Shown here: positions 1 to 25,715 of the stretch, piece after piece | How the letters are laid out: the number at the start of each line of letters is the position of its first letter | Numbering within the stretch: position 1 is the first letter of the stretch | Assembly (NCBI GenBank): GCA_031422435.1 | Contig: JANPLU010000110.1 | Coordinates: 1-25,715 of the forward strand | DNA length: 25,715 bases | Direction: 5' to 3' | Source: Acaryochloridaceae cyanobacterium VAR_48_metabat_390 | GTDB lineage: Bacteria > Cyanobacteriota > Cyanobacteriia > Thermosynechococcales > Thermosynechococcaceae | Made by a program: the position numbers and the translations under genes | The notes under the pieces: generated by a model | What the model was told of the DNA's origin: nothing | Databases searched by the model: none | What the model saw: the letters and a program-made list of their open reading frames with translations, nothing else

Positions 1-133
1 GAATTATTGTGTCAATGCGCGATGCTGAACCGGATGATTCAATTGGGTAAGCCTGTCAGTGTTCCAGTTGCTGCTTAATCCAACCTCAATAAAGGGGGAT
101 TTCTGTCCTAGATTCCACTTATGCAACAACGCC
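1..133 (+). mobile_element. Right end of an IS5-family (IS903 group) insertion sequence
   Basis: Frame +1 at 1-78 reads ELLCQCAMLNRMIQLGKPVSVPVAA*, like the IS903-type transposase C-terminus (ALNKMTKAGMPESVRIA). The terminal sequence read inward from 133 is GGCGTTGTTGCATAA, resembling the IS903 IR GGCTTTGTTGAATAA. Confidence 0.8.
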
Positions 134-951
134 GTTTCAAGAGCCACTTTCTCTAGACCACCATTGCTCTCTATCTTTTCTGTTGTTGCCTGCTGGAGCA
201 GAGAAATGTGGGAAAACTGTCGGAACCGTTCTGGCTCGGATAGCCAGTATTCTACGCCTGCATCGAAAGGATTAGCAGATACTGCGACAATGGATAAGGC
301 TTTTGTTTCATCAAAATTTAGTCCTATTAGGTCTTGCAGGCGCGAGAGAACATTCTGCTTTTTGATGTCGAAGTTCTGCTGATAATCTTCTTCGTCTGCA
401 ACGTCGGCTACTTCGTCAAAACGGCTGAGAACAAACACCGTACGCGGTAACAGATTCAGTTCACGGAAAAGCCAGTTCAGTTCGCTTGTGTGACTTTCCT
501 TGAGTGGATTAGTGGAGTTCATCACGTACAGGACGAGATGTGCCTCGCTAACGTATTTTCGGGTAATATCCTTGTACTTTTCTTGCTCTCCAGTGCTGTC
601 GCTGAACTTTTCTTTGTAGCCGAACAACCCTGGCGTGTCGATCAGGGTTAAGTCATCAGAAACGTCATATACAGCCACGGTATTGGAAGATTCTTGATGG
701 TTGATGTTCATATCAGACTGAAGCTTGCCCAACCACGCCGCCGCAATCGATGTCTTTCCTTCCGAAAAGCCACCGATTAGGGTTATTTTCAGTTTTGAAT
801 TGCCTGCAATAGACTGTTGCAACTTTTCTTTAAGGGCAGGATCGATGGACACACCTGCCGCTTCTCCTTGTGCTAGAAACTCCAATAGCTTGTCTTGAAT
901 GATACGAGCTTTGGTTTGCTGTTCTTTAAATGTATCCAGGCTCGCATTCAT
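134..951 (-). pseudogene. leoA: LeoA/HP0731-like dynamin-like GTPase, 3'-truncated by IS insertion
   Basis: G1 GGFSEGKT, G3 DTPG, G4-like SRFD, and SANPF motif. Native sequence stops at codon 273 (…VALET), where the IS IR begins; the remaining ~42 aa of the ORF to position 4 are IS read-through. Confidence 0.75.
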
Positions 952-3107
952 TACAAATTTCCTTCTGTTATAATTTTTTGAGAAATCAATTCCAGCCTTT
1001 TAACAAAATCATTTAGTAATGACGTAATCTTTTGCGCCTGTATTGCTGGTAATTGAAATTTGTTCTTGATGTTGTCTAGATTACTGTGTAATTTATGCTT
1101 TTTTTCCTTTAGTTGTGAAGTACAAGTGGATTCAATAGAGCAAAATATTTTTTCGATATTTTTATCAGCCGCTTTTCGTTGTTGAGCTTTTTTGTAATCA
1201 CTATCTAAGAATGCCCATACTGCTTTCCTGAAAGACAGGATAATGCTAAATGCACCGAAGGCTAAAGCCCAACCACCACTTACAAAAATTAAGGCTATTG
1301 AGCCAAGGACAGTCGTAATCAATCCAGAAACGCTGATACCATTGTCTATCTTTATTTCAAGTTCAAAATCTGTATCGCTTATCGTCAAGGCATCATCCAG
1401 AAATTCTTGCACATGCTCTTGGAATTGTGCAGCAATATCTTTGACTTCCTCTTGGAAGGTTTCAAACTGCTTCTTAATTTCCTCAGATAATTCTTTTTCA
1501 ATCCCTTTAAATTCATATTGAATGCAGTATTCTAGACAATGCTTAAAGTTATTATTACTTATATCTTGATCAATCTTCTCATATATATATCTTCGGGATT
1601 TTTTACGCTTTTTATCAAACACTGATACGACAGTGGACTCGATATTACTGTCCAATTCATCAACTGCACTTTCTAGCTGCAAGATTGAATCGTGCGCCTG
1701 ATTTTCAAGTTTATCAAGCAGTGGATTGAAGGTAATTTTGTTCAAGTCTTGAATCTTGTCTGCTAGTTGACGAATTACGTCATTAGCTTTGTTAAAGTTA
1801 GATTTTCGTATTCTCATCTTGACATTCTCCAGCATCTCTCCCAGCTTATGGGTAAGCGAAATGAAACCAGTTTTATGCAGAATGTCGTCTGACTTCATGA
1901 CCGCAAGAAACTTACTACGATCCTTACCTTTGATATTGCCAGGGATAAAATGATCGGTAGATGCAATAAAAGCAGGGTATGCGCTCACTATCAAAGAGTC
2001 TGCATAATGCTTGCCCAATTGCTGTTTCATCTCCGCATCCAGCACTTTGAGGCTATCTAATTCACCTTTATTGACCAATTGTGGTACACGCAACTGTTCT
2101 GCGGATTTGATGCTTTTGTTAAAGATTGTCCATACCTGAGTTTGCGCACCCAGATGCTCCTTGATCTTTTCAAGAGTTCCCTTTTCCCCAGGTTTGTTAT
2201 CACCTTTTTGTGGCGGGTCGGCCTTGCGGGTCACGTAGAATACGGCATGAGCCTTCTGTAGAGCCTGCATAATGGGTTCACGTACAAGTTCTTCCTTTCC
2301 CTCAATTCCAGGAACGTCAAGCAGCACGAATTTATGGTTGTTATTTACAGTGAACTCATAACTGCTTGTTTTACGGGTAAAATCTGATTGTCCATCACCA
2401 ATTATGTCGCCGTCCTGACATCCTTTCAGCTCGTTTATTGCATTGACAATATCAGCAATCTCATTATTTTTTGAATTAATTTCAGAAATGATCTGCAACT
2501 TTTGCTGTTCATGCTCTTTAAAAGTTTTCTCATTTTTGATAATTAATTTATTTAACTCTGTTTTGACAGCAATTAATTCAGCTTTAGCTTGCATCCAGAA
2601 TGGTAGGAACTTTATTTCTGTAGTCAGTTGGTCAACTTGTAAAGTAAGTTGCTGTTCTTGTGCATTTTGCTTTTTTTGTAATACGTTAAATTGTGAAATA
2701 AATATCTGTAGCTTTTCTTCATATCGAGCAATCTCTTGGCTTTTTTGATTCCACTTATCGGCGGCATTTTCATCAATGTTGAATTTTTCGCGCATCTCAC
2801 GGAACTTCCGTCGTGCTTCTTGTTTCTTGTTTTCACCCATCAGAATGCGTAGCGTTTCGATGATAGTGGACTTTCCTGCATTGGTTTCACCATAAAAGGC
2901 CACTGTAAACACATCCCATTCGGCATTTTTGTCAAGCTCTCGCAAGATGGCATCGGTTTGTTTTTTCAATGGCGTGACATTATTTCGGGCTGTTTCAATG
3001 GCTTTGGACAGTTCTACATTTTCCGACTGTGCCTCCAGAGCATTTAGAACTGCATTGGTTTCCCTGAGCACTTCTTTGTATATGCTTTTCAGTGATGTCA
3101 AATCCAT
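951..3107 (-). CDS. LeoBC-like dynamin-like GTPase (Eleos/Dynamins defence partner)
   Basis: 718 aa. G1 GETNAGKS, a long coiled-coil insertion, DGDIIGDGQSDFT, G3 DVPG, NKS G4-like motif, and a hydrophobic hairpin near the C-terminus. Stop overlaps the leoA start (TAATG). Confidence 0.75.
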   Translation of the reverse strand: MDLTSLKSIYKEVLRETNAVLNALEAQSENVELSKAIETARNNVTPLKKQTDAILRELDKNAEWDVFTVAFYGETNAGKSTIIETLRILMGENKKQEARRKFREMREKFNIDENAADKWNQKSQEIARYEEKLQIFISQFNVLQKKQNAQEQQLTLQVDQLTTEIKFLPFWMQAKAELIAVKTELNKLIIKNEKTFKEHEQQKLQIISEINSKNNEIADIVNAINELKGCQDGDIIGDGQSDFTRKTSSYEFTVNNNHKFVLLDVPGIEGKEELVREPIMQALQKAHAVFYVTRKADPPQKGDNKPGEKGTLEKIKEHLGAQTQVWTIFNKSIKSAEQLRVPQLVNKGELDSLKVLDAEMKQQLGKHYADSLIVSAYPAFIASTDHFIPGNIKGKDRSKFLAVMKSDDILHKTGFISLTHKLGEMLENVKMRIRKSNFNKANDVIRQLADKIQDLNKITFNPLLDKLENQAHDSILQLESAVDELDSNIESTVVSVFDKKRKKSRRYIYEKIDQDISNNNFKHCLEYCIQYEFKGIEKELSEEIKKQFETFQEEVKDIAAQFQEHVQEFLDDALTISDTDFELEIKIDNGISVSGLITTVLGSIALIFVSGGWALAFGAFSIILSFRKAVWAFLDSDYKKAQQRKAADKNIEKIFCSIESTCTSQLKEKKHKLHSNLDNIKNKFQLPAIQAQKITSLLNDFVKRLELISQKIITEGNL

Positions 3108-3388: not shown

Positions 3389-6019
3389 ATGACTTTTGTT
3401 GGACTTCATATTCACAGCGACTACAGCATGTTAGACGGTGCCAGTCAGCTTAATGACCTGGTTACACGCGCTGCGGAATTGGGGATGCCTGCGATCGCCC
3501 TCACTGACCACGGCGTGATGTACGGGGCAGTGGGGCTACTCAAAGCCTGTAAAGGCAAAGACATTAAGCCCATCATCGGCAACGAAATGTACGTCATCAA
3601 TGGGGATATTACGCTTCAGGAGCGTCGTCCCCGCTATCACCAAGTGGTGCTGGCAAAAAATACTCAGGGCTATCGCAACTTGGTCAAACTGACCACTATT
3701 TCCAGTCTTCAGGGCGTACAGGGTAAAGGCATTTTCTCGCGCCCCTGCATCAACAAAGATTTGCTAGAGCAGTACCACGAGGGCTTAATTGTCACCAGCG
3801 CCTGCCTCGGCGGTGAAGTGCCCCAAGCCATCATGAAGGGCAGGCTAGACGTTGCCCGTCGCATTGCCCGCTGGTACAAAGATCTTTTTGGCGAAGACTA
3901 CTATATTGAAATTCAAGATCACGGTTCCCAAGAAGACCGCGTGGTCAATGTCGAGATTATCCGCATTGCCCGTGAACTCGATATCAAAATTATTGCCACC
4001 AACGACTCTCACTACATCTCTTGCTACGACGTAGAAGCCCATGACGCGCTGCTCTGCATCCAAACGGGAAAACTCATCACCGAAGATAAACGCCTGCGCT
4101 ACAGCGGCACGGAGTACCTCAAATCTGCTGAAGAGATGGCGCTGCTGTTTCGCGATCACCTGACGGATGACGTGATAGAAGAGGCGATCGCCACCACTCT
4201 AGAAGTCGCTGACAAAATCGAAACCTACGATATCTTTCGAGATCCTCAAAGCCCTTCCTACCAAGTGCCCCAAGGGTATACCCCCGAAACCTACATGGAG
4301 GAAATCACCTGGCTGGGGCTGCTCGATCGCCTTAAGGTAAAATCTCGCGCAGACATTAACGCGGAGTATAAAGAGCGGCTTGAATACGAGCTAAACATGC
4401 TTGAACAGATGGGCTACTCCACTTATTTTTTAGTCGTGTGGGACTACATCAAATACGCCCGTGACAACGGCATTGCCGTGGGGCCAGGGCGGGGTTCTGC
4501 GGCGGGTTCTTTGGTGGCCTATGCGCTAGAAATCACCAATATTGACCCTGTACATCACGGCCTGCTGTTTGAGCGCTTCCTCAACCCAGAGCGTAAATCA
4601 ATGCCAGATATTGATACTGATTTCTGCATCGATCAGCGCGAAAAGATTATTGAGTACGTTACCCAAAAATATGGCGATGACCACGTTGCCCAAATTATCA
4701 CCTTTAACCGCCTCACCTCCAAAGCTGTCCTCAAAGACGTGGCGCGGGTGCTGGATATCCCCTATGGCGAATCGGATCGCATGGCAAAGCTGATTCCCGT
4801 CTCGCGGGGTAAGCCAGCCAAACTCAAGGTCATGATTTCAGACCAGACCCCCGCCCCAGAATTTAAGGAAAAATACGACACCGACCCTAGAGTGCAGCGC
4901 TGGATAGACATGGCAATCCGCATTGAAGGCACTAACAAAACCTTCGGCGTTCACGCAGCAGGCGTGGTGATTGCGGCAGAACCGATTGACCAGGTGGTGC
5001 CCCTCCAGCGCAACAACGACGGCTCGGTTATTACCCAGTACTACATGGAAGACCTAGAGTCTCTGGGCTTACTGAAGATGGACTTCTTGGGGCTAAAGAA
5101 CCTCACCATGATTCAAAAAGCTGCCGAGCTAATTCAGCAAAATCGTCATGAGACGATTGATGTAGACCAGCTACCAATGGACGATGCCAAAACCTACCAG
5201 CTCCTTGCCAAAGGCGAACTAGAAGGCATCTTTCAGCTAGAGTCTTCGGGGATGCGGCAGGTGGTGCGCGACCTCAAACCCTCCAACCTCGAAGATATTT
5301 CATCGATTTTGGCACTCTATCGTCCTGGGCCATTAGATGCAGGACTAATTCCCAAGTTTATTAACCGTAAGCATGGGCGCGAACAAATTGAGTATCAGCA
5401 CAAAATCTTAGAGCCGATTCTCAACGAAACCTACGGCATTATGGTTTACCAAGAGCAGATCATGAAAATCGCTCAGGAGATGGCGGGGTACTCCCTTGGG
5501 CAGGCGGATTTACTGCGCCGCGCTATGGGGAAAAAGAAAGTCTCTGAGATGCAGAAACACAGTGAACTGTTTGTTGAAGGCGCTGCTAAAAATGGCGTAA
5601 CAAAGCAGGTTGCCACAGAACTCTTTGACCAAATGGTCATGTTTGCAGAATATTGCCTTGCTGCCGATACTGAGGTGCTGACGGTTGAGCATGGCTGGGT
5701 CACCATTGGGCAACTGGTGAATCAAGAATTAGAGGCACAGGTTTATACGGTGCATCCTCAAGGCTATGTTTATACGCAGCCGATTTGGCAGTGGCATCAT
5801 CGCGGCTATCAAGCGGTGTTTGAGTATGAACTTGAAAATGGCGTGGTCATTCAGGCTACGCCAGACCATCAGTTTATGACAGCAGATGGGCAAATGTTGC
5901 CCATTGATCAGATTTTTGCCGATGGCTTGATGCTACAGCAAGTGGATCTGCCCCAACTCTACGTAAAAAATCAGCCGCAGAAAAAGCTATGTCTTTGCAG
6001 CAGAATTAGTTCGCGCTAA
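3389..6019 (+). CDS. dnaE: DNA polymerase III alpha subunit, N-terminal part, with N-half of split intein
   Basis: PHP domain ([18 protein letters not shown]), [12 protein letters not shown], catalytic PDIDTD, and LLRRAMGKK; then [17 protein letters not shown] intein block A. Confidence 0.97.
5654..6016 (+). other. DnaE split intein N-fragment (121 aa)
   Basis: Starts at Cys756 after the extein …FAEY; contains block [10 protein letters not shown] (TxxH). The ORF ends without an intein C-half or the polymerase C-terminus. Confidence 0.93.
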
Positions 6020-15618: not shown

Positions 15619-16593
15619 ATGTCGAGACATTTAGAAAGACTTCTTCAGCTAGATACGCTGATCCGCTCAAGCCACCGTCATACAGTAGAGAGCCTAGCAA
15701 AGGCTGTAGAAAGAAGCGATCGCACGGTAAGAAACGACTTGGCATTTCTGCGCGATCGCCTGGGTGCGCCACTGCTCTACAAAAAGACTAAGGGGTTTCA
15801 CTATACTGACCCAGACTGGCGGTTGCCGAGCATTACGCTGAGTCAAGGGGAACTGTTTGCCCTGACGTTAGGGGCGCGAATGTTAGAAAACTACGCGGGG
15901 TCTGCCTATGCGGAGGAGTTGCGGGGGGCGATCGCCCGTTTAGCCGAACGCCTGCCTGAGCAAACTTGGGTAGATCTCCAGCAGTTGGCAAATGAAAACG
16001 TGTTGTTTCGAGTGGGGGCGCAGCTCGATCTAGATTCTGATGTGTGGCAGGTACTGGAGACAGCTTGCCAACTGAAGCAGCGGGTGTTGATGCGCTACTA
16101 CACGGCGGGGCGAAATGAGGAGACGGAACGCAAGCTTGACCCCTATCTGCTGCACTTTACGCGGAACAATCCTTATGTAACGGGCTATTGTCATCGGCGG
16201 CAGGCTATTTTGTGGTTTCGGGTGGATCGGGTGCGCTCTATTCAGCTCTTAAAGGAGCGCTTTGAGATTGACCCATCGTTTGATCGGCAAAAACATTTTG
16301 AGGATGTATTTCAGCATGAGGTGGGGAAGCAGGCTTATGAGGTGGCGATTTGGTTTGATGGGCAGACGGCTCCCTACATTCGAGAGCGGCGCTGGCATCC
16401 AACTCAGGTGATTGAGGAAGGGGAAGATGGAGGGTTGATTTTGCGGATGACGGTACGGGGGTTGAATGAGCTGAAGCGTTGGGTTCTATTTTATGGGAAG
16501 GGGGCGATCGCCCTGGAGCCGCCAGAGCTGGTGCAGATGATTGAAGATGAGATATCGACGATGTACCGCCACTATGAGGAGGGACGACCATGA
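15619..16593 (+). CDS. HTH-WYL-WCX transcriptional regulator (CRISPR-associated)
   Basis: N-terminal wHTH (SDRTVRNDL), WYL domain (Y…R.LDPY.L…YVTGYC..R…FRVDRV), and WCX (RWVLFYG…LEPPEL); located upstream of the cas operon. Confidence 0.9.
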   Translation: MSRHLERLLQLDTLIRSSHRHTVESLAKAVERSDRTVRNDLAFLRDRLGAPLLYKKTKGFHYTDPDWRLPSITLSQGELFALTLGARMLENYAGSAYAEELRGAIARLAERLPEQTWVDLQQLANENVLFRVGAQLDLDSDVWQVLETACQLKQRVLMRYYTAGRNEETERKLDPYLLHFTRNNPYVTGYCHRRQAILWFRVDRVRSIQLLKERFEIDPSFDRQKHFEDVFQHEVGKQAYEVAIWFDGQTAPYIRERRWHPTQVIEEGEDGGLILRMTVRGLNELKRWVLFYGKGAIALEPPELVQMIEDEISTMYRHYEEGRP

Positions 16594-17201
16594 TTCAAGC
16601 GTTACAGAGACTAATGACGTTTGAGGAGTTTCTGGATTGGTACCCAGAAGATGGGAACTGCTATGAGCTGATGGATGGGGAGGTGATATCTGTGCGACCT
16701 AGGGGCGAACACGAAGAGGTGATTAGCTTGCTGACCCGCAAGCTGGATCGGGAGGTGGAGCGACTGGATCTGCCGTGGTTTATTCCTAAAACCTGCTGTG
16801 TGAAGCCTGAGGGAAATCTGGATGGCTATGTGCCGGATTTGATTGTGCTAGATCGCGTTCAATTACAGTCGGAGCCGCTCTGGAAGAAGGCTTCTACGAT
16901 TGTGCAGGGTGCTTCTGCTCGGCTGGTGGTGGAGGTGGCGAGTACGAATTGGCAGGATGACTATGCCAAGAAGCTAGAAGACTATGAGCTGTTGGGTATA
17001 CCTGAGTATTGGATTGTGGATTATCGGGCGTTGGGGGGACGGCGATATATTGGGTCGCCTAAGGTGCCGACGGTGAGTGTTTATGTGTTGGTGGATGAGG
17101 TGTATCAGGTGCGGCAGTTTAGGGAGGGGGAGGCAATCGCGTCTGCTATTTTCCCTGAGCTAAGGCTGACGGCGGCAGAGATTTTGACGGTGGGGGAGTA
17201 G
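16590..17201 (+). CDS. Uma2-family PD-(D/E)XK endonuclease
   Basis: MTFEEFL, YELMDG, PDLIV, VVEVAS, DY..K..DY..LGIPEYWIVD motifs; ATGA overlap with the WYL gene. Confidence 0.92.
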   Translation: MIQALQRLMTFEEFLDWYPEDGNCYELMDGEVISVRPRGEHEEVISLLTRKLDREVERLDLPWFIPKTCCVKPEGNLDGYVPDLIVLDRVQLQSEPLWKKASTIVQGASARLVVEVASTNWQDDYAKKLEDYELLGIPEYWIVDYRALGGRRYIGSPKVPTVSVYVLVDEVYQVRQFREGEAIASAIFPELRLTAAEILTVGE

Positions 17202-17214
17202 TGGGGTGAAGTGG

Positions 17215-17298
17215 GCGATCACGCTGGGGCCATCGGAGTTGGTGGAGACGGTGCGGGAGGAGGTAAAAGTGATGGATCAAGCCTATCGGTTTAGTTGA
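17215..17298 (+). pseudogene. Orphan duplicate of the WYL regulator C-terminus
   Basis: Reads AITLGPSELVETVREEVKVMDQAYRFS*, homologous to WYL AIALEPPELVQMIEDEISTMYRHY; begins at a degenerate HIP1 site (GCGATCAC). Confidence 0.7.
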
Positions 17299-17339
17299 TG
17301 TTTTTTTCAGGAGAGCTTTTGTACCATGATTGATGAATG

Positions 17340-17345
17340 TATAAT
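17340..17345 (+). promoter_or_regulatory. -10 box for the mini-CRISPR
   Basis: Perfect TATAAT 6 nt upstream of repeat 1; no clear -35 at canonical spacing. Confidence 0.55.
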
Positions 17346-17351
17346 TGCATT

Positions 17352-17447
17352 GTGTTCGTCTCAGATGCCTTTGGCGTTGAGCACAGAAGTGCGACAGAAC
17401 CTGGCGGACTTTTGCATTCGCGCTCCCACCACTGATGCCGCAAGGCG
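17352..17447 (+). CRISPR. Single-spacer mini-array (degenerate Myxan/I-B repeats; crRNA-like regulatory RNA)
   Basis: Repeat 1 GTGTTCGTCTCAGATGCCTTTGGCGTTGAGCAC (17352-17384); 35-nt spacer 17385-17419; repeat 2 GCGCTCCCACCACTGATGCCGCAAGGCG (17420-17447), lacking the TTGAGCAC tail. The shared GATGCC..GGCG core and GGCGTTGAGCAC end are typical of repeats at Myxan-type I-B loci. Confidence 0.85.
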
Positions 17448-17488
17448 CTTTTCAAAATCCAACAAATAGGGTTATCCGAAACGATTTT

Positions 17489-17557
17489 ATGAGAAGAGCA
17501 ACTTAACCAGGGGGACTAGGGGGGTTGACAAACGAGATATCCTAAGTCAAGATATCT
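17489..17557 (+). promoter_or_regulatory. Putative ORF75/cas promoter with overlapping crRNA target site
   Basis: ATG PAM at 17489-17491, protospacer-like 17492-17526, TTGACA at 17525-17530, a weak -10 CAAGAT 17 nt later (17548-17553), and inverted repeat AGATATC-N9-GATATCT (17535-17557). Confidence 0.65.
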
Positions 17558-17584: not shown

Positions 17585-17812
17585 ATGATTTCTCCTAGTT
17601 TTGTCCTCTGCTGTTCATCCTGTGGAAAACAACACTCGATCTATATCAATCAGAAACCGTTGGATGAGCTTACAGATGAGAATCAACAACTTAAGGAAGA
17701 GAAACTTTACCTCAACCAAGTGTGTGAAAGCTTAAGTGAAAGACTTGTTGCGGCGGAGTCAATGGCTGCTTGGGACGATATAGACGGTAATGCCATAGCA
17801 AATTTGCTTTAG
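17585..17812 (+). CDS. Hypothetical 75-aa protein (CxxC + coiled coil)
   Basis: ATG preceded by GAAGG; CCSSCGKQH then heptad-like LDELTDENQQLKEEKLYLNQVCESLSERL; lies between the promoter and cas6. Confidence 0.55.
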   Translation: MISPSFVLCCSSCGKQHSIYINQKPLDELTDENQQLKEEKLYLNQVCESLSERLVAAESMAAWDDIDGNAIANLL

Positions 17813-17892
17813 CAATAAAAAGTGAATTTCTTTAAGCAAACCCAAGCAGTTGATGCTGTAAGACGAAGGGACTTGAATAAAATTTACTGATT

Positions 17893-18558
17893 TTGAGGAA
17901 TATAGTCGTGTTAGTGATCGAACAGTTAAATCAGAAAGATAATGTTCTTGAGGCTCCCTATGTTGATCTTGATTTCAACATTATGGGAGAAACGCTACCT
18001 GCGGATCATGGGTATGGGTTGTATAGTGCGATCGCCCATCTTTGCCCTCAAGTCCACGAACAAGAAGGGTTGAGCATTCTAACGATCACAGGAATTCCTG
18101 ATAAAAAAGGCAAGATTTTTTTGACAGAGCGATCGCATTTACGCATTCGGTTGCCCTATGACTGTATGCCAATGGTCTATCACCTTGCAGGAAAACAGCT
18201 AACTATTGGGTCGCACTCAATTCGGTTGGGGATTCCACAGATTTTTATGTTACGTCCTGGGTCGAGGTTACGCGCTCGGATTGTGACGATTAAAAACCAT
18301 CAGGAGCCTGAGAGTTTTTTGGAAGCAGTAAGGTTGCAATTAGCTGCTTTGGGCGTTGTGGGGGAGGCAATTATACCTTTGGATGTGGAGGGTAGGCCTG
18401 CCCGAAAAACTATCAAAATCAAAACTTACTCTGTCGTTGGTTTTGGATTGGAGGTATCGGATTTAAGTGAGGAGGATTCGATCAAGTTACAGATTTCTGG
18501 ATTGGGTGGTAAGCACCGCATGGGGTGTGGTGTGTTTGTCCCGATGAAGGAGCTTTAA
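17893..18558 (+). CDS. cas6: Cas6 (Myxan-type I-B, Cmx6)
   Basis: LPADHGY.LYSAI, ARIVTIK, and the C-terminal G-rich loop GLGGKHRMGCGVF. Start uncertain (TTG 17893 or a downstream GTG). Confidence 0.9.
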   Translation: MRNIVVLVIEQLNQKDNVLEAPYVDLDFNIMGETLPADHGYGLYSAIAHLCPQVHEQEGLSILTITGIPDKKGKIFLTERSHLRIRLPYDCMPMVYHLAGKQLTIGSHSIRLGIPQIFMLRPGSRLRARIVTIKNHQEPESFLEAVRLQLAALGVVGEAIIPLDVEGRPARKTIKIKTYSVVGFGLEVSDLSEEDSIKLQISGLGGKHRMGCGVFVPMKEL

Positions 18559-18561
18559 GGA

Positions 18562-20922
18562 ATGACAAACTTGCCAGAACAACTATTAGCGAAAAGTAAA
18601 CTTAAAGATCGTCCACCAGTCACCTTACAAAAGCATCTGTTAGATACAGAAAAATCTGCCTGCCAAATTTTCCGTTTAAATGGACGTTGGGGAAAAAATT
18701 GGTGTCGTTTTTTCAAATTGATAACTGAGGAGGAACAACAGAAATTTATTTTGAATTTGCAAGTTTCGGCATTGTTTCATGACATTGGCAAGGCAAATGA
18801 AGAATTTTATAAAGCGGTCACAGGAAAATGCGACCAGACTTTTCGGCACGAACATATCAGCGCTTTGATACTGCATTTACCTCAAGTACGTTCTTGGTTA
18901 AATAGAGCGCCTTTAGATGTTGAAGTCATTACAGCAGCCGTTTTATCTCATCATTTGAAGGCTTCTGAGAAAGGCGATCGCCAATGGGCAAGTCCACGCA
19001 AGGGGACTCGTGGTAAAGCAGTTCAGCTTTATTTACTCCATGATGAAGTTAAAAGTATTTTGCTAAAAATTGCTAAGATTGCAGTTCTTGATGTACCACC
19101 TGAACTAAATTTTTCTACGTTCTCTCAAGATGCGATGTGGGGCAAAGCATGGAAGGAGGGAATTGATACTGCAAAGAAACTGATGCGTGATATTACTGAA
19201 GAAAGAAGAAGTCTGCTTTTAGCAGTTAAAGCAGGGCTGATTGTTTCTGATGCAGCGGCTTCAGGGCTAGTGAGAGAGAATAAAAATATTGATGAGTGGA
19301 TTGAAGATGTTGTGCATGGTGATGCGATCGCTAGCGCAGACATTACTGAAAACATTTTGGCTAAACGTGCGGCTCAAATCTTTGCAATCACTCAAAAGCC
19401 TTTTGAATTGCATAACTTTCAAAAGTTAGCGGCGCAGCAAGGATCGCGGGTTTTGCTTTTAGCGGCTTGTGGTGCAGGCAAAACTCTAGCAGCCTGGAAA
19501 TGGGCTGAAGAGCAGGTTAAGCATTGCAAGGTTGGGAAAGTTATTTTTCTTTATCCCACACGCGGTACAGCTATGGAGGGGTTTAAAGATTATGTGAGTT
19601 GGGCACCTGAAGCTGATGCAGCATTGGTGACAGGAACAGCACGCTATGAACTGGAGGCAATGGCAGATAATCCACCTGATTCGATGCAGGAAAAAGACTT
19701 TACAACTGATGATCGCCTATTCTCTCTAGGTTTTTGGTCGCGGCGATATTTTAGTGCGACGGTCGATCAATTTTTAGGCTTTATGGAACATAGCTATGGT
19801 GGCATCTGCCTTCTACCTGTTTTGGCTGATAGCGTCGTGATTATCGATGAGATTCATAGTTTCGATTTGAAGATGTTTGATAGTTTGATTGCTTTCCTAA
19901 AATATTTTGATATCCCAGTTCTTTGCATGACTGCGACTTTGCCTCCGTCTCGGCGCAAACAGCTTGTAGAGGTGGGGTTACAGGTTTATCCGACGGAAAG
20001 CGATTACCAAAGCCTAAAAGATCTAGAAATCAAAGAGAATCACCCACGCTATCAAATCCAACCTGTAGAGGTTTTTAATGAAGCCTTTGCAAAAGCTATA
20101 GCTGCTTATAGGCAAGGTAAAAGGATTCTATGGGTTGTAAATACAGTTGATCGCTGTTTGGCAATTTCTAAGCGGCTTGCAAATGAACTGAAATTAGAAG
20201 TGTTGACATATCACAGCCGATTTCGATTGATGGATCGCCAGAAAGTTCATGCTGACACTGTCAAGGCATTTGCTTTTCAAAAAGATGGCGATCGTAAACC
20301 CGCAATCGCAGTAACGACCCAAGTTTGTGAAATGTCTCTAGATTTAGACGCCGATGTTTTGATTACCGAATTTGCGCCAATTTCTTCGCTAGTTCAACGT
20401 TTTGGAAGAGCTAACCGCCATCCAGACTCTAGAACAGATAGAACTTTTAAAGCCAGACTTCATGTCTATAAACCACCGAAGGATTTGCCCTATGATCGCA
20501 AAGAGCTTGAAACCGCCCAAAGATTTATTGACGAGTTAGGCATCGGTGACATTAGCCAAAATCGTTTAGCGGTCGCTTTAGAAAAGTTTGCCAATGAGGA
20601 GAGAAAAGCAGATGGAATGCCATCATTTTTTACGAGTGGTTATTTTGCCACAATGGGCAGTTTTCGCGATACCGATGAGTACGCGCTTCCTTGCGTTCTT
20701 GATCGCGATCTAGAAAAAGTTAAGGCACTTGTGGAATCTAGACCTAAGAAGCCATACGACGGATTCATTATCAATGTCCCAGTCCCACGCAAGGGAATAC
20801 ATTCTCTTGATGACAAGCCGAGTTGGTTGCCTAAATATTTGGGTGTGGCTCAGTGGGAAGGTAACTACGATGAGAAATCGGGATTCTCAACAAAGAATTT
20901 AGAGGAGGTCAATCTTGGTTAA
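18562..20922 (+). CDS. cas3: Cas3 HD nuclease-helicase
   Basis: HD domain (HDIGK, RHEH, LSHH, SDAAAS), Walker A CGAGKT, DEIH, TAT, YHSRF, TQVCEMSLD and QRFGRANR; appears intact. Confidence 0.95.
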   Translation: MTNLPEQLLAKSKLKDRPPVTLQKHLLDTEKSACQIFRLNGRWGKNWCRFFKLITEEEQQKFILNLQVSALFHDIGKANEEFYKAVTGKCDQTFRHEHISALILHLPQVRSWLNRAPLDVEVITAAVLSHHLKASEKGDRQWASPRKGTRGKAVQLYLLHDEVKSILLKIAKIAVLDVPPELNFSTFSQDAMWGKAWKEGIDTAKKLMRDITEERRSLLLAVKAGLIVSDAAASGLVRENKNIDEWIEDVVHGDAIASADITENILAKRAAQIFAITQKPFELHNFQKLAAQQGSRVLLLAACGAGKTLAAWKWAEEQVKHCKVGKVIFLYPTRGTAMEGFKDYVSWAPEADAALVTGTARYELEAMADNPPDSMQEKDFTTDDRLFSLGFWSRRYFSATVDQFLGFMEHSYGGICLLPVLADSVVIIDEIHSFDLKMFDSLIAFLKYFDIPVLCMTATLPPSRRKQLVEVGLQVYPTESDYQSLKDLEIKENHPRYQIQPVEVFNEAFAKAIAAYRQGKRILWVVNTVDRCLAISKRLANELKLEVLTYHSRFRLMDRQKVHADTVKAFAFQKDGDRKPAIAVTTQVCEMSLDLDADVLITEFAPISSLVQRFGRANRHPDSRTDRTFKARLHVYKPPKDLPYDRKELETAQRFIDELGIGDISQNRLAVALEKFANEERKADGMPSFFTSGYFATMGSFRDTDEYALPCVLDRDLEKVKALVESRPKKPYDGFIINVPVPRKGIHSLDDKPSWLPKYLGVAQWEGNYDEKSGFSTKNLEEVNLG

Positions 20923-22567
20923 GAGAAATTCTAAACAGATGTCTCTTCTATCAGAGAATAAGGTATTGACACTTGACTATACGTTAGCTGAGTTACCATC
21001 TTCACAGCATCGATCTGGTTTGGCTGGATTGGTTTTGATGGTGAGATGGTTGCATCGTTTTGATGCATGGAAACAGGATAGTTCTGCTATTTGCGAGATC
21101 GAGAATTTAAGTGATCGCTCAGTCACCTTACGAGTTAACCAGTTAGGTTTACAAACTCTATTCAATGAGGTTTATCGAGCCTACTTTGAAGAGCGTAACT
21201 ACGATCAACCCAAAACGAAAGGGAAAGGCGAAAAAAAGACTATAGTTCCTTGGAAAGGATATCCTGATCCAGGAAGTATAAAGGATGAAAAAACTGGGAA
21301 GAGCAAAAAAGTCTATCCCTATGATGATGTTATCCCCAAGGGTGCATTTATTGCTGATATCGATCCTGATGGAGATCGCGGTCGATGGATTAAACTGTGG
21401 CGAGATTTGCTTTGGAGCATTTTGCGTGGTGTACCAGCTACGCGATCGCCCTATGAGTCAAGAGCGAATGGTAACTATACTGATGATGCCGATAAGGTAT
21501 GGAAAGAGCTGTTACAACCTGCTGAATTTACAGTCGATCTGCCCAGTACATATTATATTGGAGCGCAAGCCAGCAATCCTGAAAATGTGCCTTTTAAGGA
21601 TCGCGCAAGGTATCAATTTCTTTTACATTTTTGGGTGTTTGCTGCTTCTGTTTATGTACCAGCCGTCATCAATAATGAAGGAAAGCGCGATTTTGTGGGT
21701 TATGCAATAGCTATCCCTGACATCGCACAGCTAGGACTCTTCTGTGATGAATTTCTAGGACTATTGAAAGAACGTGGAAATGAAGTCACAGGCTATCGTC
21801 CCCGTGATGCTGTCGTCGATTTAGCAGTGGAAGGGGCGCTAGACCTGATGGCTAGATTGCGTGATCGCGTCTCTAGATTAGAAACTAGCATTGGCGATCT
21901 GGTCATGAGTGTAGATGTGATTCACACCGAAAAGCAAGGCAATAATGTTCGAATTCTCGGCGCAGCTCGTCTCGATCCACCCGAAAGAGAATGGATTGAT
22001 AAGTATCGCGAAATTCGAGAACACTTGTGGAACGCTACATTTCGCCACCAAAGATTACTCAATCTAGTGAGTAATAAAGCTTGGTATATGGGATTTGATT
22101 CGCTACTATGTACCATTGCCTATAAACAAACGATGGAAAATGACTATTTCTGTCATGATGTTCGCGAATCATTCAAATATGAGGTAGAAAATATGACCGA
22201 TGAAACAGAACAAAGTTCTAATGTTGAAGTTGCCGAATACTCTTGCGAAAAACTTGTTTTACGCTTGGTCAAGTCCTATGTCTTGAGTAAATTAGATGGT
22301 AAATATCAACTCAATTGGAAAGAGGTAGAAGGATCGCCGAAAGAGAAGGAGTATCGCGAGAAGAAGGCTAAAATTGCTAAGTCTGCTTTTCTAGATGTTC
22401 GCAGCCGCACTGAAAAGTCTGACTTTATCAATTACTTTGCTTCCACGATTTGCTCTGTATCACAGCGAATGAACGAGGATAGTTTTGAGAAATTAACTCG
22501 CGATCTCTATGAAGACACAGACAAAGTGCGTACTTTGACGATGCTTGCCCTCTCTGCTAACAGCTAA
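20915..22567 (+). CDS. cas8: Cas8 large subunit (Myxan-type Cas8a1/Cmx1)
   Basis: LAELPSSQHRSGLAGL, WIKLWRD.LW.ILRGVPATR, FLLHFW and TMLALSANS motifs; positioned between cas3 and cas7. Confidence 0.85.
   Translation: MVKRNSKQMSLLSENKVLTLDYTLAELPSSQHRSGLAGLVLMVRWLHRFDAWKQDSSAICEIENLSDRSVTLRVNQLGLQTLFNEVYRAYFEERNYDQPKTKGKGEKKTIVPWKGYPDPGSIKDEKTGKSKKVYPYDDVIPKGAFIADIDPDGDRGRWIKLWRDLLWSILRGVPATRSPYESRANGNYTDDADKVWKELLQPAEFTVDLPSTYYIGAQASNPENVPFKDRARYQFLLHFWVFAASVYVPAVINNEGKRDFVGYAIAIPDIAQLGLFCDEFLGLLKERGNEVTGYRPRDAVVDLAVEGALDLMARLRDRVSRLETSIGDLVMSVDVIHTEKQGNNVRILGAARLDPPEREWIDKYREIREHLWNATFRHQRLLNLVSNKAWYMGFDSLLCTIAYKQTMENDYFCHDVRESFKYEVENMTDETEQSSNVEVAEYSCEKLVLRLVKSYVLSKLDGKYQLNWKEVEGSPKEKEYREKKAKIAKSAFLDVRSRTEKSDFINYFASTICSVSQRMNEDSFEKLTRDLYEDTDKVRTLTMLALSANS
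22193..22567 (+). CDS. cas11: Cas11 small subunit from internal in-frame start in cas8
   Basis: SD-like GAGGT (22181-22185) precedes an in-frame ATG (cas8 codon 427, MTDETEQ…), giving a 124-aa helical C-terminal product. Confidence 0.7.
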   Translation: MTDETEQSSNVEVAEYSCEKLVLRLVKSYVLSKLDGKYQLNWKEVEGSPKEKEYREKKAKIAKSAFLDVRSRTEKSDFINYFASTICSVSQRMNEDSFEKLTRDLYEDTDKVRTLTMLALSANS

Positions 22568-22589: not shown

Positions 22590-23471
22590 ATGACTAACAA
22601 GAATTTATTTGCAACCGTTCTCACTTATGCTGCACCAAGCTCTAACTATCGTGGTGAAAGCGAAGAGAATCGAACCGTTCTCCAGAAAATTGCCAAAGAC
22701 AAGAAAGAATATACGGTGATCAGCCCAGAATCGATGCGAAATGCTTTACGCGAAAGGTTGATCGCCGCAGGTGTGCCATCTAACAGAAAGCGTTTGCACG
22801 ATCAAGATCAACTTGCCGTTGAGTTCCAAGAGTTTCCAAATGCTGCCAAGTATGCCGATGACTTTTTGTTTGGCTTCATGGTTGCCGATAATGACGCGAT
22901 TAAAAAGAACAAAGGAATGCCGCCTAAGCGCGATAGTATTCTGCGGATGAATATTGCATTAGCTTTAAATCCCTACAGATTTGATGCGACTTTTCATCAG
23001 TCTCCCCAAAATGCGGGAGTTAGTCCTTGGAAAAATTCGGTTAACTCTGCACTACTACATCGTGAGATTTCCCACACAGCTTATCAATATCCTTTTGCAC
23101 TCGCTTACAATGACTGCAAGAGTCAGCCTGATTGGGTGAAAGCTTTGCTCAAAGCAATTAGCGAGCTTTCGGATGTAGCAGGTGGTCATGCACGTAGCTA
23201 TTACGAAATGGCTCCCAAAAGCATTGTTGCGCGGCTTACTCCTTGCCTCGTGGCAGGGTTTAATACTTACGGATTTGATGAAAATGGTAATTTCCCAGAA
23301 TTGTCGCGATTGAAACCTGACGATTTGCCTGCTGACGAGTTTTGGATGGGTGGCGAGATTGTTCGTAATATGAAATCAGAGGAACGCAAACGCTTCCAAG
23401 ATGCTGGCGCTAAGCTATACGAAAATCCGCAAAAGTTGCTTGCTGACCTTGCAAACGACTTTTTAGATTAG
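22590..23471 (+). CDS. cas7: Cas7 (DevR/Cst2-like)
   Basis: SNYRGESEENRTVLQKI, ISPESMRNALRE, DDFLFGFM, SALLHRE and VAGGHAR motifs. Confidence 0.9.
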   Translation: MTNKNLFATVLTYAAPSSNYRGESEENRTVLQKIAKDKKEYTVISPESMRNALRERLIAAGVPSNRKRLHDQDQLAVEFQEFPNAAKYADDFLFGFMVADNDAIKKNKGMPPKRDSILRMNIALALNPYRFDATFHQSPQNAGVSPWKNSVNSALLHREISHTAYQYPFALAYNDCKSQPDWVKALLKAISELSDVAGGHARSYYEMAPKSIVARLTPCLVAGFNTYGFDENGNFPELSRLKPDDLPADEFWMGGEIVRNMKSEERKRFQDAGAKLYENPQKLLADLANDFLD

Positions 23472-23480
23472 GAGAGCGCC

Positions 23481-24194
23481 ATGAATTGTATGTGGTTGCG
23501 TATTCGTGCGCCCTTTGCTGCCTATCGTGGTTTTCAGGCTGGCGTGTATCGTTCGACGATGCCGATTATGCCGCCATCTGCTGCTTTGGGTTTGGTTCTA
23601 AACCTTGCTGGAATTGAAATGCGGACTGGGCTGGATAAACCAACAACCCAGATTCGTGAAGATATTCCCCATTTGCAGCTAGCGATCGGTGCAGTTGATG
23701 GTTCGGAGAGTGAGGTGTGTTCTCTTTATCAGCAACTTCACAGTTATCCAGTTGGCAATTCTGGCAAAGAGACCTTAAAACCTCTCACTAAAGGTGCAAA
23801 ATTCTGGATTGTTCCCGTGCGAAGAGAGTTACTGGTTGGGCTAGATATGATTATCGGTATTCAGGAATTTGAAGGCTTATTTGATCGCATCCGGCAGGGT
23901 TTGCGAGGTGAGCTAAATGATTGTCGCTATGGTATGCCCTTTGCCGGAGATAATAATTTCCTCTTTGATCGCATTGATATTATCGACAGTCCGCCGTTAA
24001 CGCACTGGTATGAAAAGATGGAAATTGATTCAGCACCCCGCAAACGATCGCAACGATTGACCGTCGGCATTAATCGCCTTGATAACAGCAAAACCACGAG
24101 CTATCTATTTGCCCCGATCGCTTCACCATCTATCGAGCCACCAACCCTAGCTTGGACGTGGTCTCCCAAAGAACCTCAGTCAATCTCTGCATAG
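23481..24194 (+). CDS. cas5: Cas5 (DevS/Cmx5-like)
   Basis: LRIRAPFAAYR, PPSAALGLVLNLAGIE, YQQLHSYPVG, PVRRELL and RYGMPFAGDNNF motifs. Confidence 0.9.
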   Translation: MNCMWLRIRAPFAAYRGFQAGVYRSTMPIMPPSAALGLVLNLAGIEMRTGLDKPTTQIREDIPHLQLAIGAVDGSESEVCSLYQQLHSYPVGNSGKETLKPLTKGAKFWIVPVRRELLVGLDMIIGIQEFEGLFDRIRQGLRGELNDCRYGMPFAGDNNFLFDRIDIIDSPPLTHWYEKMEIDSAPRKRSQRLTVGINRLDNSKTTSYLFAPIASPSIEPPTLAWTWSPKEPQSISA

Positions 24195-24301
24195 ATTCTC
24201 ATGCTTTGAAGACATCAATGGTGTGCGATTGCTCCACTCAAAGACAATCGCCTCAACCCATTTCGCTCTAAATTTTAGTGATAATCCTCACCTTAATCCT
24301 T

Positions 24302-24616
24302 ATGAATCTTCAAAATATAGACCTCCCCCTTACCAAAATTCAAAGCACCTGTAAACGCTGGAAAATCCAAGAACTCGCTCTCTTTGGCTCTGTCCTTCGA
24401 GATGATTTTCGAGCTGATAGCGATATTGACCTGCTCGTCACATTTGAGCCTGACGCTAAACGAGGGCTTACCGAAACCTTGCAAATTCAGGATGAATTTC
24501 AAACACTTTTTGGACGCAAAGTTGACCTGATCGTCAAAAGCGCCATCGAACGAAGTGATAACTGGCTACGCAAGAAAAATATTCTAGAATCAGCCCAAAA
24601 TATTTATTTCGCGTGA
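24302..24616 (+). CDS. Minimal nucleotidyltransferase (MNT) antitoxin
   Basis: LFGSVLRDDFRADSDIDLLV (GS-x10-DxD) and LFGRKVDL; ATG at 24302. Confidence 0.9.
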   Translation: MNLQNIDLPLTKIQSTCKRWKIQELALFGSVLRDDFRADSDIDLLVTFEPDAKRGLTETLQIQDEFQTLFGRKVDLIVKSAIERSDNWLRKKNILESAQNIYFA

Positions 24617-24932
24617 CCTAGAATCTCTCATTGATATTCAAAATGCAGCACAACGGATCAAGCGATATGTTGATGGCATCAGCCGCTCAGCGTTAGAAGA
24701 AAATGACGAAAAACTCTCAGCCATTCTTTATCAAATTACTATCATTGGCGAAGCCACAAAGCGGATTTCTTCTGAATTCCGCGCTCAGCATCCTGAAATA
24801 CCTTGGCGAGAAATGGCTGGAATGCGCGATGTTATTATGCATGAGTACGATCAGCTTGATTTTGAGGTGATATGGGATGTCGTCAGTCACAAATTAGATG
24901 AACTACTCAGTCTTAGCGAGCATCTATCTTAA
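24606..24932 (+). CDS. HEPN (DUF86/HepT-like) RNase toxin with non-canonical ATT start or lost start
   Basis: Not in the ORF track. Frame reads (I)SRDLESLIDI…IIGEATKRIS.EFR.QHPEIPWREMAGMRDVIMHEYDQLDFEVIWDV…*, 108 aa, with intact R-x4-H-x-Y motif. Confidence 0.8.
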   Translation: MSRDLESLIDIQNAAQRIKRYVDGISRSALEENDEKLSAILYQITIIGEATKRISSEFRAQHPEIPWREMAGMRDVIMHEYDQLDFEVIWDVVSHKLDELLSLSEHLS

Positions 24933-25061
24933 AGTATGTGCGATCGCCCCACCCTTACCTCACCGAAGGGCGATCGTCTTCTCTTCAGCTCTAAAAGCTA
25001 CACTAAAGCATAACCTCCTGAGCAAGGAGGTTATGCAAGCGCCAACTCAGGAGTCAACACT

Positions 25062-25280
25062 ATGATGTCGCCTCAATTGCTCATTACTCTCGAAAAACTT
25101 CCTGAACCCCTTCAGAAAGAGGTTTTGCACTATGCTGAATTTCTAGCAAATAGATATAGTCAAGACCAACCTGAACCTAGTTTGCCGACAAAACGTCGTC
25201 AAGCAGGCATAATGAAAGGCTTGATTTTGATGTCAGATGATTTTGACGCACCGCTTGAAGACTTGAAAGATTACATGTAA
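25062..25280 (+). CDS. DUF2281-type antitoxin
   Basis: LPEPLQKEVLHYAEFL…R.AG..KG.I.MSDDFDAPLED; directly upstream of the PIN gene. Confidence 0.85.
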   Translation: MMSPQLLITLEKLPEPLQKEVLHYAEFLANRYSQDQPEPSLPTKRRQAGIMKGLILMSDDFDAPLEDLKDYM

Positions 25281-25287
25281 ATAGTCA

Positions 25288-25575
25288 ATGTTGCTAGACA
25301 CTCATGCTCTCCTCTGGTTTCTAGATAATGATGATCGTCTCCCCACTTATACAAAAGCACAGATCGAAACCACTGAAACTGTACTTGTCAGTATTGCTTC
25401 CCTTTGGGAAATTGCCATCAAGGCAAATATAGGGAAACTGACTCTGAAAACAACGTTCATCGCCATTCAGCAAAGCCTGATTACTCTGGGCATTAATATC
25501 ATTCCTATCACATTTATGGATACTGAAACCTATATTTCACTGCCGCTCCATCATCGTGACCCCTTTGATAGAATC
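25288..25575 (+). pseudogene. vapC: PIN/VapC toxin truncated by IS insertion
   Basis: LLDTHALLW, VSIASLWEIAIK and LP.HHRDPFDR; the sequence switches to the IS end at 25576, losing the expected …IAQA…T.D C-terminus. Confidence 0.8.
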
Positions 25576-25715
25576 GGGAGCATCTCACTTTTGCGATAAG
25601 TATTTATACTCAAGCATTTAAGACATTAAAAACGGGAGACTTGAGGCACTGTACTTGGAGTGAAGCGTATGACTCCCGAAGAAAAACAGACCATAAAAGT
25701 CCACTTGGATGCCGT
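25576..25715 (+). mobile_element. Left end of an ISKra4-like insertion sequence with transposase start
   Basis: Terminal GGGAGCATCTCACTTTTGC. ORF from 25669 reads MTPEEKQTIKVHLDA… with a GGAG RBS, resembling cyanobacterial ISKra4-family transposase N-termini; runs off the window. Confidence 0.65.

Follow-up and report, generated by a model that had tools for sequence, protein, structure and literature searches.

The window analysed here, 25,715 nucleotides long, corresponds to contig C110 in a cyanobacterial assembly of 3.7 Mb. Its right part carries, in this order, an HTH-WYL gene, a Uma2 gene, a gap of 384 nt, a small open reading frame of 75 codons (ORF75) and the genes cas6/cmx6, cas3, cmx8, cas7/DevR and cmx5. 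The effector operon is of type I-B Myxan, with cmx6, cas3, cmx8, DevR and cmx5 all exceeding curated cut-offs. The following features, all on the forward strand, were assigned in this region:

15619..16593, +: HTH-WYL-WCX regulator gene (Pfam)
16590..17201, +: Uma2-family endonuclease gene (Pfam), a separate insertion that is absent in locus L001
17208..17265, +: duplicated 3' tail of a WYL gene, which forms the left border of the cassette (blastn against WYL 3' ends; local alignment)
17340..17345, +: TATAAT, putative −10 box of the mini-array (from sequence)
17349..17384, +: mini-array repeat R1, a hairpin with intact 8-nt 3' handle (fold −10.3 kcal/mol, z −2.0)
17385..17419, +: regulatory-guide spacer, 35 nt
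17420..17455, +: degenerate repeat R2
17489..17516, +: ATG PAM (17489-17491) and partial protospacer (17492-17516)
17525..17553, +: putative promoter, TTGACA (17525-17530), 17 nt, CAAGAT (weak −10)
17585..17812, +: ORF75 (protein P0001), 75 aa, ATG start, between the degenerate two-repeat mini-array and cas6/cmx6
17838..17873, +: solitary degenerate repeat, possible Cas6 cut site (p = 0.005 against shuffles)
17950..18558, +: cas6/cmx6 (TIGR02807); the ATG at 17950 was taken as start, a longer TTG start lies at 17893
18562..20922, +: cas3, in which the HD, Walker A and DEIH motifs are all kept
20915..22567, +: cas8b/cmx8 (TIGR04413)
22590..23471, +: cas7/DevR (TIGR02585)
23481..24194, +: cas5/cmx5 (TIGR02586)

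A repeat search found no multi-repeat CRISPR array in the assembly. Genes that we take to be cas4/1 and cas2 lie on another contig of the same genome (C15:22950-25213), where they adjoin one intact and one degenerate repeat. An intact effector operon without a full array fits addiction-based retention, or loss of the array in the assembly. Ahead of the mini-array (17208-17335), a leftover ribosome-binding site with an ATG was seen together with the duplicated WYL 3' tail. A frame of 47 codons spans the mini-array, and comparable frames are present in most cassette loci.

The mini-array guide and its target

The mini-array shows the features of CreR and CreA, namely two degenerate repeats around one spacer in the vicinity of cas genes, and its target combines a partial spacer match, a cognate PAM and a putative promoter. 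Mismatches between spacer and target fall on spacer positions 6, 9, 12, 13, 18 and 21, with position 9 lying within the seed region. In type I complexes every sixth position is not base-paired, and of the scorable (non-sixth) positions 18 of 21 match the target. None of 2000 shuffles of the region reached 18 matches (maximum 14), and among 109,108 ATG-flanked sites of the genome the own target scored best, followed by a site with a score of 15. The spacer match stops 8 nt short of TTGACA. A consensus scan returned no promoter-like sites; because of this result and the weak −10 element (CAAGAT), the promoter is counted as putative. The sequence behind R2, considered as a second spacer, has no target. 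According to the available text of the study on the Synechocystis 6714 Myxan I-B Cascade, the measured PAM of this complex is AYG (PMC11096372). The initial annotation had placed ORF75 behind a crRNA-targeted promoter, and at the level of sequence the targeting stands (ATG PAM, 18/21 match), the promoter itself staying putative. Judged from these sequence features, a regulatory circuit of a known kind appears well supported.

Variants of the locus were obtained for a related strain from runs X3 and X4, on contigs with a depth of 3-6. In X3 the linker between R2 and the PAM differs at 13 of 33 bases, and spacer positions 1-12 at 0 of 12. No change is seen in the PAM or in either promoter hexamer, whereas five bases between the hexamers differ. 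At position 17, spacer and target alike carry a C>T exchange in X3 and also in X5, and in the related strain target positions 9 and 12 are altered so as to match the spacer. The X3 and X5 variants suggest that the match between spacer and target is under selection. ORF75 of X3 differs at about ten bases and contains an in-frame insertion of 3 nt, which is also present in the homologue P0002. This corresponds to a divergence of ~4-5% in the ORF, compared to 39% in the neighbouring linker, with the single indel in frame. Six of the nine changed codons are non-synonymous, and therefore the codon test is not decisive on purifying selection.

A further repeat-like element of the cassette is the solitary repeat between ORF75 and cas6. 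Of 16 cargo loci tested, 8 contain a similar solitary repeat (p<=0.005). Potentially, cutting by Cas6 at this site would separate the ORF75 message from the cas message and would add a second Cas-dependent control.

ORF75 and its homologues

ORF75 is the first gene behind the targeted promoter-like site. As described before, this small ORF ahead of cas6 encodes a CCSSCGKQH motif (residues 9-17), a helical heptad stretch and an acidic tail (12 D/E vs 5 K/R in the protein). Nine homologues with about 32-93% identity were identified, and they keep the CxxC motif and the coiled coil: a word-indexed search returned P0002 (93% identity) as sole match, an exhaustive search seven more proteins of 60-89 aa with 33-57% identity, and a later search P0017. 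Two long coiled-coil proteins from the exhaustive search were discarded as false matches. In the family alignment C10, C13 and L54 are invariant, and starts and ends are aligned. Conservation of cysteines is limited to C10 and C13, C9 being a Tyr in the nearest homologue. The tail AAWDxxxGxxIANL is kept in seven of nine aligned members, and the other two end before it. The homologues and their invariant cysteines identify ORF75 as a conserved protein-coding family. It is a rare one: a profile search of 401 genomes found it in the own genome only, where no second copy was detected, and the genome context of CxxC-bearing members is known for the window and one close strain.

The AlphaFold2 model (pLDDT 86, tail low) comprises a CxxC beta-hairpin (residues 6-19) and one long helix (26-72). 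The invariant CxxC on this predicted hairpin would provide two ligands of a four-ligand zinc site, and ORF75 is predicted to combine a putative zinc knuckle with a coiled coil.

The initial annotation did not recognise the family, and indeed the protein could not be placed in any family of Pfam, NCBIfam, PHROG, PADLOC or PDB. Pfam yielded CtIP_N (E = 0.004) and CXXC_Zn-b_euk (0.048), and NCBIfam the SA0632 lipoprotein (0.001), all far below curated cut-offs. PHROGs and PADLOC gave no match to ORF75, and PDB sequences nothing convincing. For the model, Foldseek against PDB and viral structures gave none at E<=0.001, and VIA matched generic helices with a best Z of 5.4. The best score in the ESM Atlas was 0.88, to unnamed viral clusters, which we treat as a lead. 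Across Pfam, NCBIfam, PHROGs, PADLOC, PDB, Foldseek and VIA no toxin domain or fold was found for ORF75. YabA, ZapB, CtIP_N and the L33 zinc ribbon share with ORF75 a generic coiled-coil or CxxC likeness and were rejected as homologues, all being far below curated cut-offs. A tblastn search with ORF75 gave no match in plasmids, phages or IMG/VR contigs, and therefore a phage origin is not supported. The same search with L120, a member of the tail family described below, gave none in plasmids or phages.

The cargo slot beside cas6 in other loci

We collected 101 loci with a cas6 match and kept 86, after 15 duplicates or truncations had been dropped. In 37 of the 86 the WYL gene abuts cas6 (<=130 nt) without a cassette. 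The cassette is optional, as it is absent in L001 and in the closest named relative. The 37 loci with WYL directly next to cas6 include Altericista sp. CCNU0014, with a Cas6 91% identical. The sequence of the window suggests that the cassette was inserted at the former start of cas6.

In 17 of the 86 loci the mini-array spacer matches a neighbouring site at 9/10 or more seed positions, and all 17 targets carry an ATG PAM. The canonical array of L061 contains 15 sequences that follow a repeat, and no such seed match was obtained with any of them. Behind the target, 14 of these 17 mini-arrays have a small ORF of 53-107 aa, a count to be read with the kinship of several of the loci, which are not independent. 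The slot is empty in the other three (L041, L043 and L050); therefore, autoregulation alone is enough to keep a mini-array.

Besides ORF75, two groups of cargo occupy the slot, one of coiled-coil proteins (A) and one of HTH-like proteins (B). Group B (HTH_17, E = 2e-4, below cut-off) was found in L049, L046, L078, L087, L113, L114 and L008/L010/L015, in a slot before cas6 or cas8. Its proteins have 68-107 aa and an N-terminal motif of the type QL[SNT][LIF][FL], which presumably resembles a beta-clamp-binding motif. The group B proteins are candidate replication-blocking toxins. Profile searches of 301 whole genomes without a cas bait added three members of A and two of B. All five are preceded by a mini-array whose target has an ATG PAM, and they are located either upstream of cas6 or downstream of cas3.

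The starts of Cas8b in the window (20915-20960, QMSLL) and of Cas10d in L116 (2626-2680, QLSLF) are, as we see it, also clamp-motif-like. In L111 the mini-array is reversed, and two targets on opposite strands form an inverted repeat beside TTGACA.

A wider tail family in types I-B, I-C and I-D

With the ORF75 profile, no close member was found outside the window in 401 + 221 genomes, and there were four weak matches, of which two were noise. L106 and L107, weak profile matches, and the profile match L145 proved to be unrelated coiled coils. L105 and L115 are coiled-coil ORFs of type I-D loci, located between cas3' and cas10d (an HMM search confirmed both genes in L116/L118). They follow a reversed mini-array, the target of which is flanked by GTC; as we assume, GTC is the I-D PAM. 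A profile of the ORF75-family tail matched L115 (E = 5e-6) and L105 (2e-4), and one of the family-A tail matched L105 (1e-3) and P0011 (0.014), the best of 25,844 background frames scoring 0.24 and 0.44, respectively. Alignment of the two tails by hhalign gave a probability of 72% (E = 3.5e-5). The direct link between ORF75 and family A is weak (family-A tail against P0001, E = 16; full-length hhalign probability 3%); the connection runs through bridging sequences, and coiled coils inflate such scores. The wider family is defined by a coiled coil and the conserved tail 'DPYS-x-x-G-x-A-I', and ORF75 is linked to it by profile through its C-terminal half.

A joint profile gave 42 matches in 38 of 321 genomes, and the loci of 30 of the 42 were examined. 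Twelve of these 30 lie in cas operons. In seven of them the member immediately follows a mini-array target that is flanked by a PAM: L116-L118 (I-D; L116 being identical to the training locus L115), L130, L140 and L143 (I-B), and L144 (I-C), where the flank TTC is presumably the I-C PAM. L131 is a further cas-operon member with a slipped target match, and L128, L129, L132 and L136 have their member between cas6 and cas3 with no mini-array directly before it. In L132 (440-660) and L136 (540-760), the spacer of the mini-array matches the very beginning of cas6, whose ATG start codon serves as PAM.

In the remaining 18 of 30, cas genes are absent within about 1.5 kb and mini-arrays are mostly absent as well, and therefore the wider family is not CRISPR-exclusive. 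Ten are near hemC or behind a gene for a ~290-aa protein, three before a ribonucleotide reductase gene, three elsewhere and two doubtful. From their surroundings, these members away from cas appear to live without evident Cascade repression. The wider family looks like a mobile small-protein module that was recruited several times, and ORF75 is a real, unnamed protein that probably belongs to a new cargo family spanning three subtypes.

Outside CRISPR loci, a conserved all-helical protein of ~290 aa is encoded directly upstream in L119, L122-L124, L126, L137 and L138, and possibly forms a two-gene module with the tail-family gene. It has neither a known family nor a known fold, with no match in Pfam, NCBIfam, PADLOC, PHROG or PDB, and was not found in the own genome. 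In L133, L135 and L139 the tail-family gene is inserted before the ribonucleotide reductase gene, and in two of these loci (L133 and L135) the first codons of the reductase are also present as a copy further upstream, like in a mobile insertion.

Comparison with known modules

CreP, a protein of ~100 aa encoded between cas genes downstream of a CreA target, is characterised in the available text of Shu et al. (10.1101/2024.01.05.574328) and is the only Cascade-repressed protein toxin in the literature consulted. The CrePA module, consisting of the CreA RNA and the KilAC-domain protein CreP, belongs to type I-F of Acinetobacter (10.1101/2024.01.05.574328). It shares with the ORF75 locus the two degenerate repeats, the partially matching spacer and, within the cas locus, a target with a flanking PAM that precedes a small protein ORF. 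In contrast to CrePA, the ORF75 locus is of type I-B Myxan (with relatives in I-C and I-D) and cyanobacterial, and half of the loci of its type tested contain the extra solitary repeat after the ORF. ORF75 itself differs from CreP in its CxxC and coiled coil, in that no match to the KilAC/ANT family was obtained in Pfam, NCBIfam or PHROGs, and in that no phage homologue was found. CreP is toxic, whereas ORF75 is a candidate toxin from its layout.

Type I-B mini-arrays upstream of cas6, of the CreR kind, are treated in two preprints (Liu et al., 10.1101/2023.03.10.532045; Shmakov et al., 10.1101/2023.03.03.530964). As in CreR, the spacer of the ORF75 locus matches the promoter region before cas6 with a cognate PAM, and related loci exist with and without cargo, but here a conserved small ORF separates the promoter region from cas6. 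Shmakov et al. (10.1101/2023.03.03.530964, available text) had predicted regulatory mini-arrays ahead of cas6 in I-B and, for I-D, cargo located behind such arrays. The cargo named in the available parts of these sources comprises TA and regulators, mainly from I-D, and this coiled-coil family is not among it (10.1101/2023.03.10.532045; 10.1101/2023.03.03.530964). In Haloarcula, CreA is stated to repress both creT and cas8 (10.1101/2023.03.10.532045, available text); as with these haloarchaeal I-B CreTA modules and their RNA toxins, one guide might repress a toxin and cas promoters in the case of ORF75, too. In the literature searched, no description of the ORF75 family was found, and supplements (cargo tables of Shmakov et al., homologue lists of Shu et al.) may list some of the loci. 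The family is also unmentioned in the available text of a phage crlRNA preprint and a Synechocystis Ribo-seq preprint.

Proposed function of ORF75

We give about even odds (roughly 0.5) to ORF75 being a CrePA-like, Cascade-repressed protein that arrests growth through its conserved tail and is unrelated to CreP. This estimate is based on the presence of a dispensable, exchangeable and subtype-independent small protein as first gene behind the target, which is the CrePA layout. Following the precedent of CreR and CreA, Cas6 would mature the mini-array guide, and guide-loaded Cascade would bind the target without cutting, as proposed from the partial match, and thereby shut one promoter serving ORF75 and cas6-cas3-cas8-cas7-cas5. 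Loss of Cascade, or its blockade by an anti-CRISPR, would then raise the Cas supply and ORF75 together. The C-terminal tail, common to other slot cargo, might be the working end that binds an essential host protein, and the N-terminal knuckle or helix an exchangeable dimerisation unit. To name a specific host target, such as the division or replication machinery, is doubtful at best. The association of one family with I-B, I-C and I-D in a dispensable cassette fits a host-acting plug-in better than a subunit of Cascade.

The suggestion of a Cascade-repressed toxin in the initial annotation has gained a conserved family with relatives behind mini-array targets in other cas loci, and it has to accommodate the lack of a known toxin domain or fold, the empty slot in 3 of 17 loci and the 18 of 30 wider-family members not near cas. 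It is tempting to speculate further about an unnamed cyanobacterial family of coiled-coil toxins with the tail 'DP[YF]S-x-x-G-x-[AS]-[IL]' and swappable N-termini, of which ORF75 would be the zinc-knuckle form. Such a family might have been recruited repeatedly as a Cascade-repressed guard of I-B, I-C and I-D systems, be interchangeable with the clamp-motif HTH family, and gain Cas6-dependent message control from the solitary repeat. This larger picture is tentative and, taken as a whole, has somewhat more chance of being wrong than right.

Instead of a toxin, ORF75 might be a translated, non-toxic regulator or helper, for example a decoy or modulator of Cas, anti-CRISPR or host stress proteins, co-induced with the cas genes when CreR-type autorepression by Cascade is relieved. 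We regard this as possible, if rather improbable. ORF75 heads a putative transcript that also includes cas6-cas5, and a sequence scan found no terminator-like site between them; no toxin fold was found, the other slot family is HTH-like (with its HTH_17 match below cut-off), and the members of L128, L129, L132 and L136 lack a mini-array directly before them, all of which would suit such a role. Against it stands the absence of the cassette in close relatives, and a partner specific to Cas proteins is difficult to reconcile with a tail family that accompanies three subtypes of differing subunits and also occurs away from cas. Plain autoregulation of cas, with ORF75 as a real but neutral passenger from a mobile module that arrived in a gene-shuffling hotspot, appears unlikely. 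Regions of this kind are called shuffling hotspots in the available text of Shmakov et al. (10.1101/2023.03.03.530964), and the empty slots, the rarity of the family among the 401 genomes, the six of nine non-synonymous codon changes and the many non-cas members all agree with a passenger. However, members of the tail family recur directly downstream of targets that have a PAM and belong to different spacers, in I-B, I-C and I-D alike, and the ORF has diverged far less than the linker, its one indel being in frame.

It is very unlikely that the toxic agent is a CreT-like RNA and that the ORF merely engages ribosomes. Characterised CreT toxins do have mini-ORFs (10.1101/2024.01.05.574328, available text), but ORF75, unlike CreTA, is conserved at the protein level, with motifs kept down to about 32% identity, and has no rare-codon cluster at its start; moreover, the predicted folding of its 5' region is not more stable than that of shuffled sequences (z 0.84). 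That ORF75 is spurious is hardly credible: it is short, has a weak ribosome-binding site and a GC content of 41% vs 46% in cas6, but the nine homologues, in which the cysteines are invariant and both starts and ends align, largely refute this explanation.

A 2025 review (PMC12737573, available text) regarded the existence of similar modules in other CRISPR types, and with other targets, as an open question. The ORF75 locus and its relatives offer a candidate set of two unannotated protein families in three subtypes from cyanobacteria, with the empty-slot and no-cassette loci as natural controls. If toxic, these proteins would represent new anti-anti-CRISPR guards that act on a new host target, and they might serve as a kill switch in engineered cyanobacteria; if non-toxic, they would be an unexplained protein class co-regulated with Cascade.

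Other genes of the window

The contig starts with two dynamin-like GTPase genes on the reverse strand (4-3107), which we take to be LeoA/DLP-like. They are followed at 3389-6019 by what is presumably the N-terminal half of a split DnaE with an intein, an ordinary arrangement in cyanobacteria. Behind cas5 (24278-25599), an MNT gene with a HEPN-like gene and a DUF2281 gene with a PIN gene form toxin-antitoxin-like pairs.
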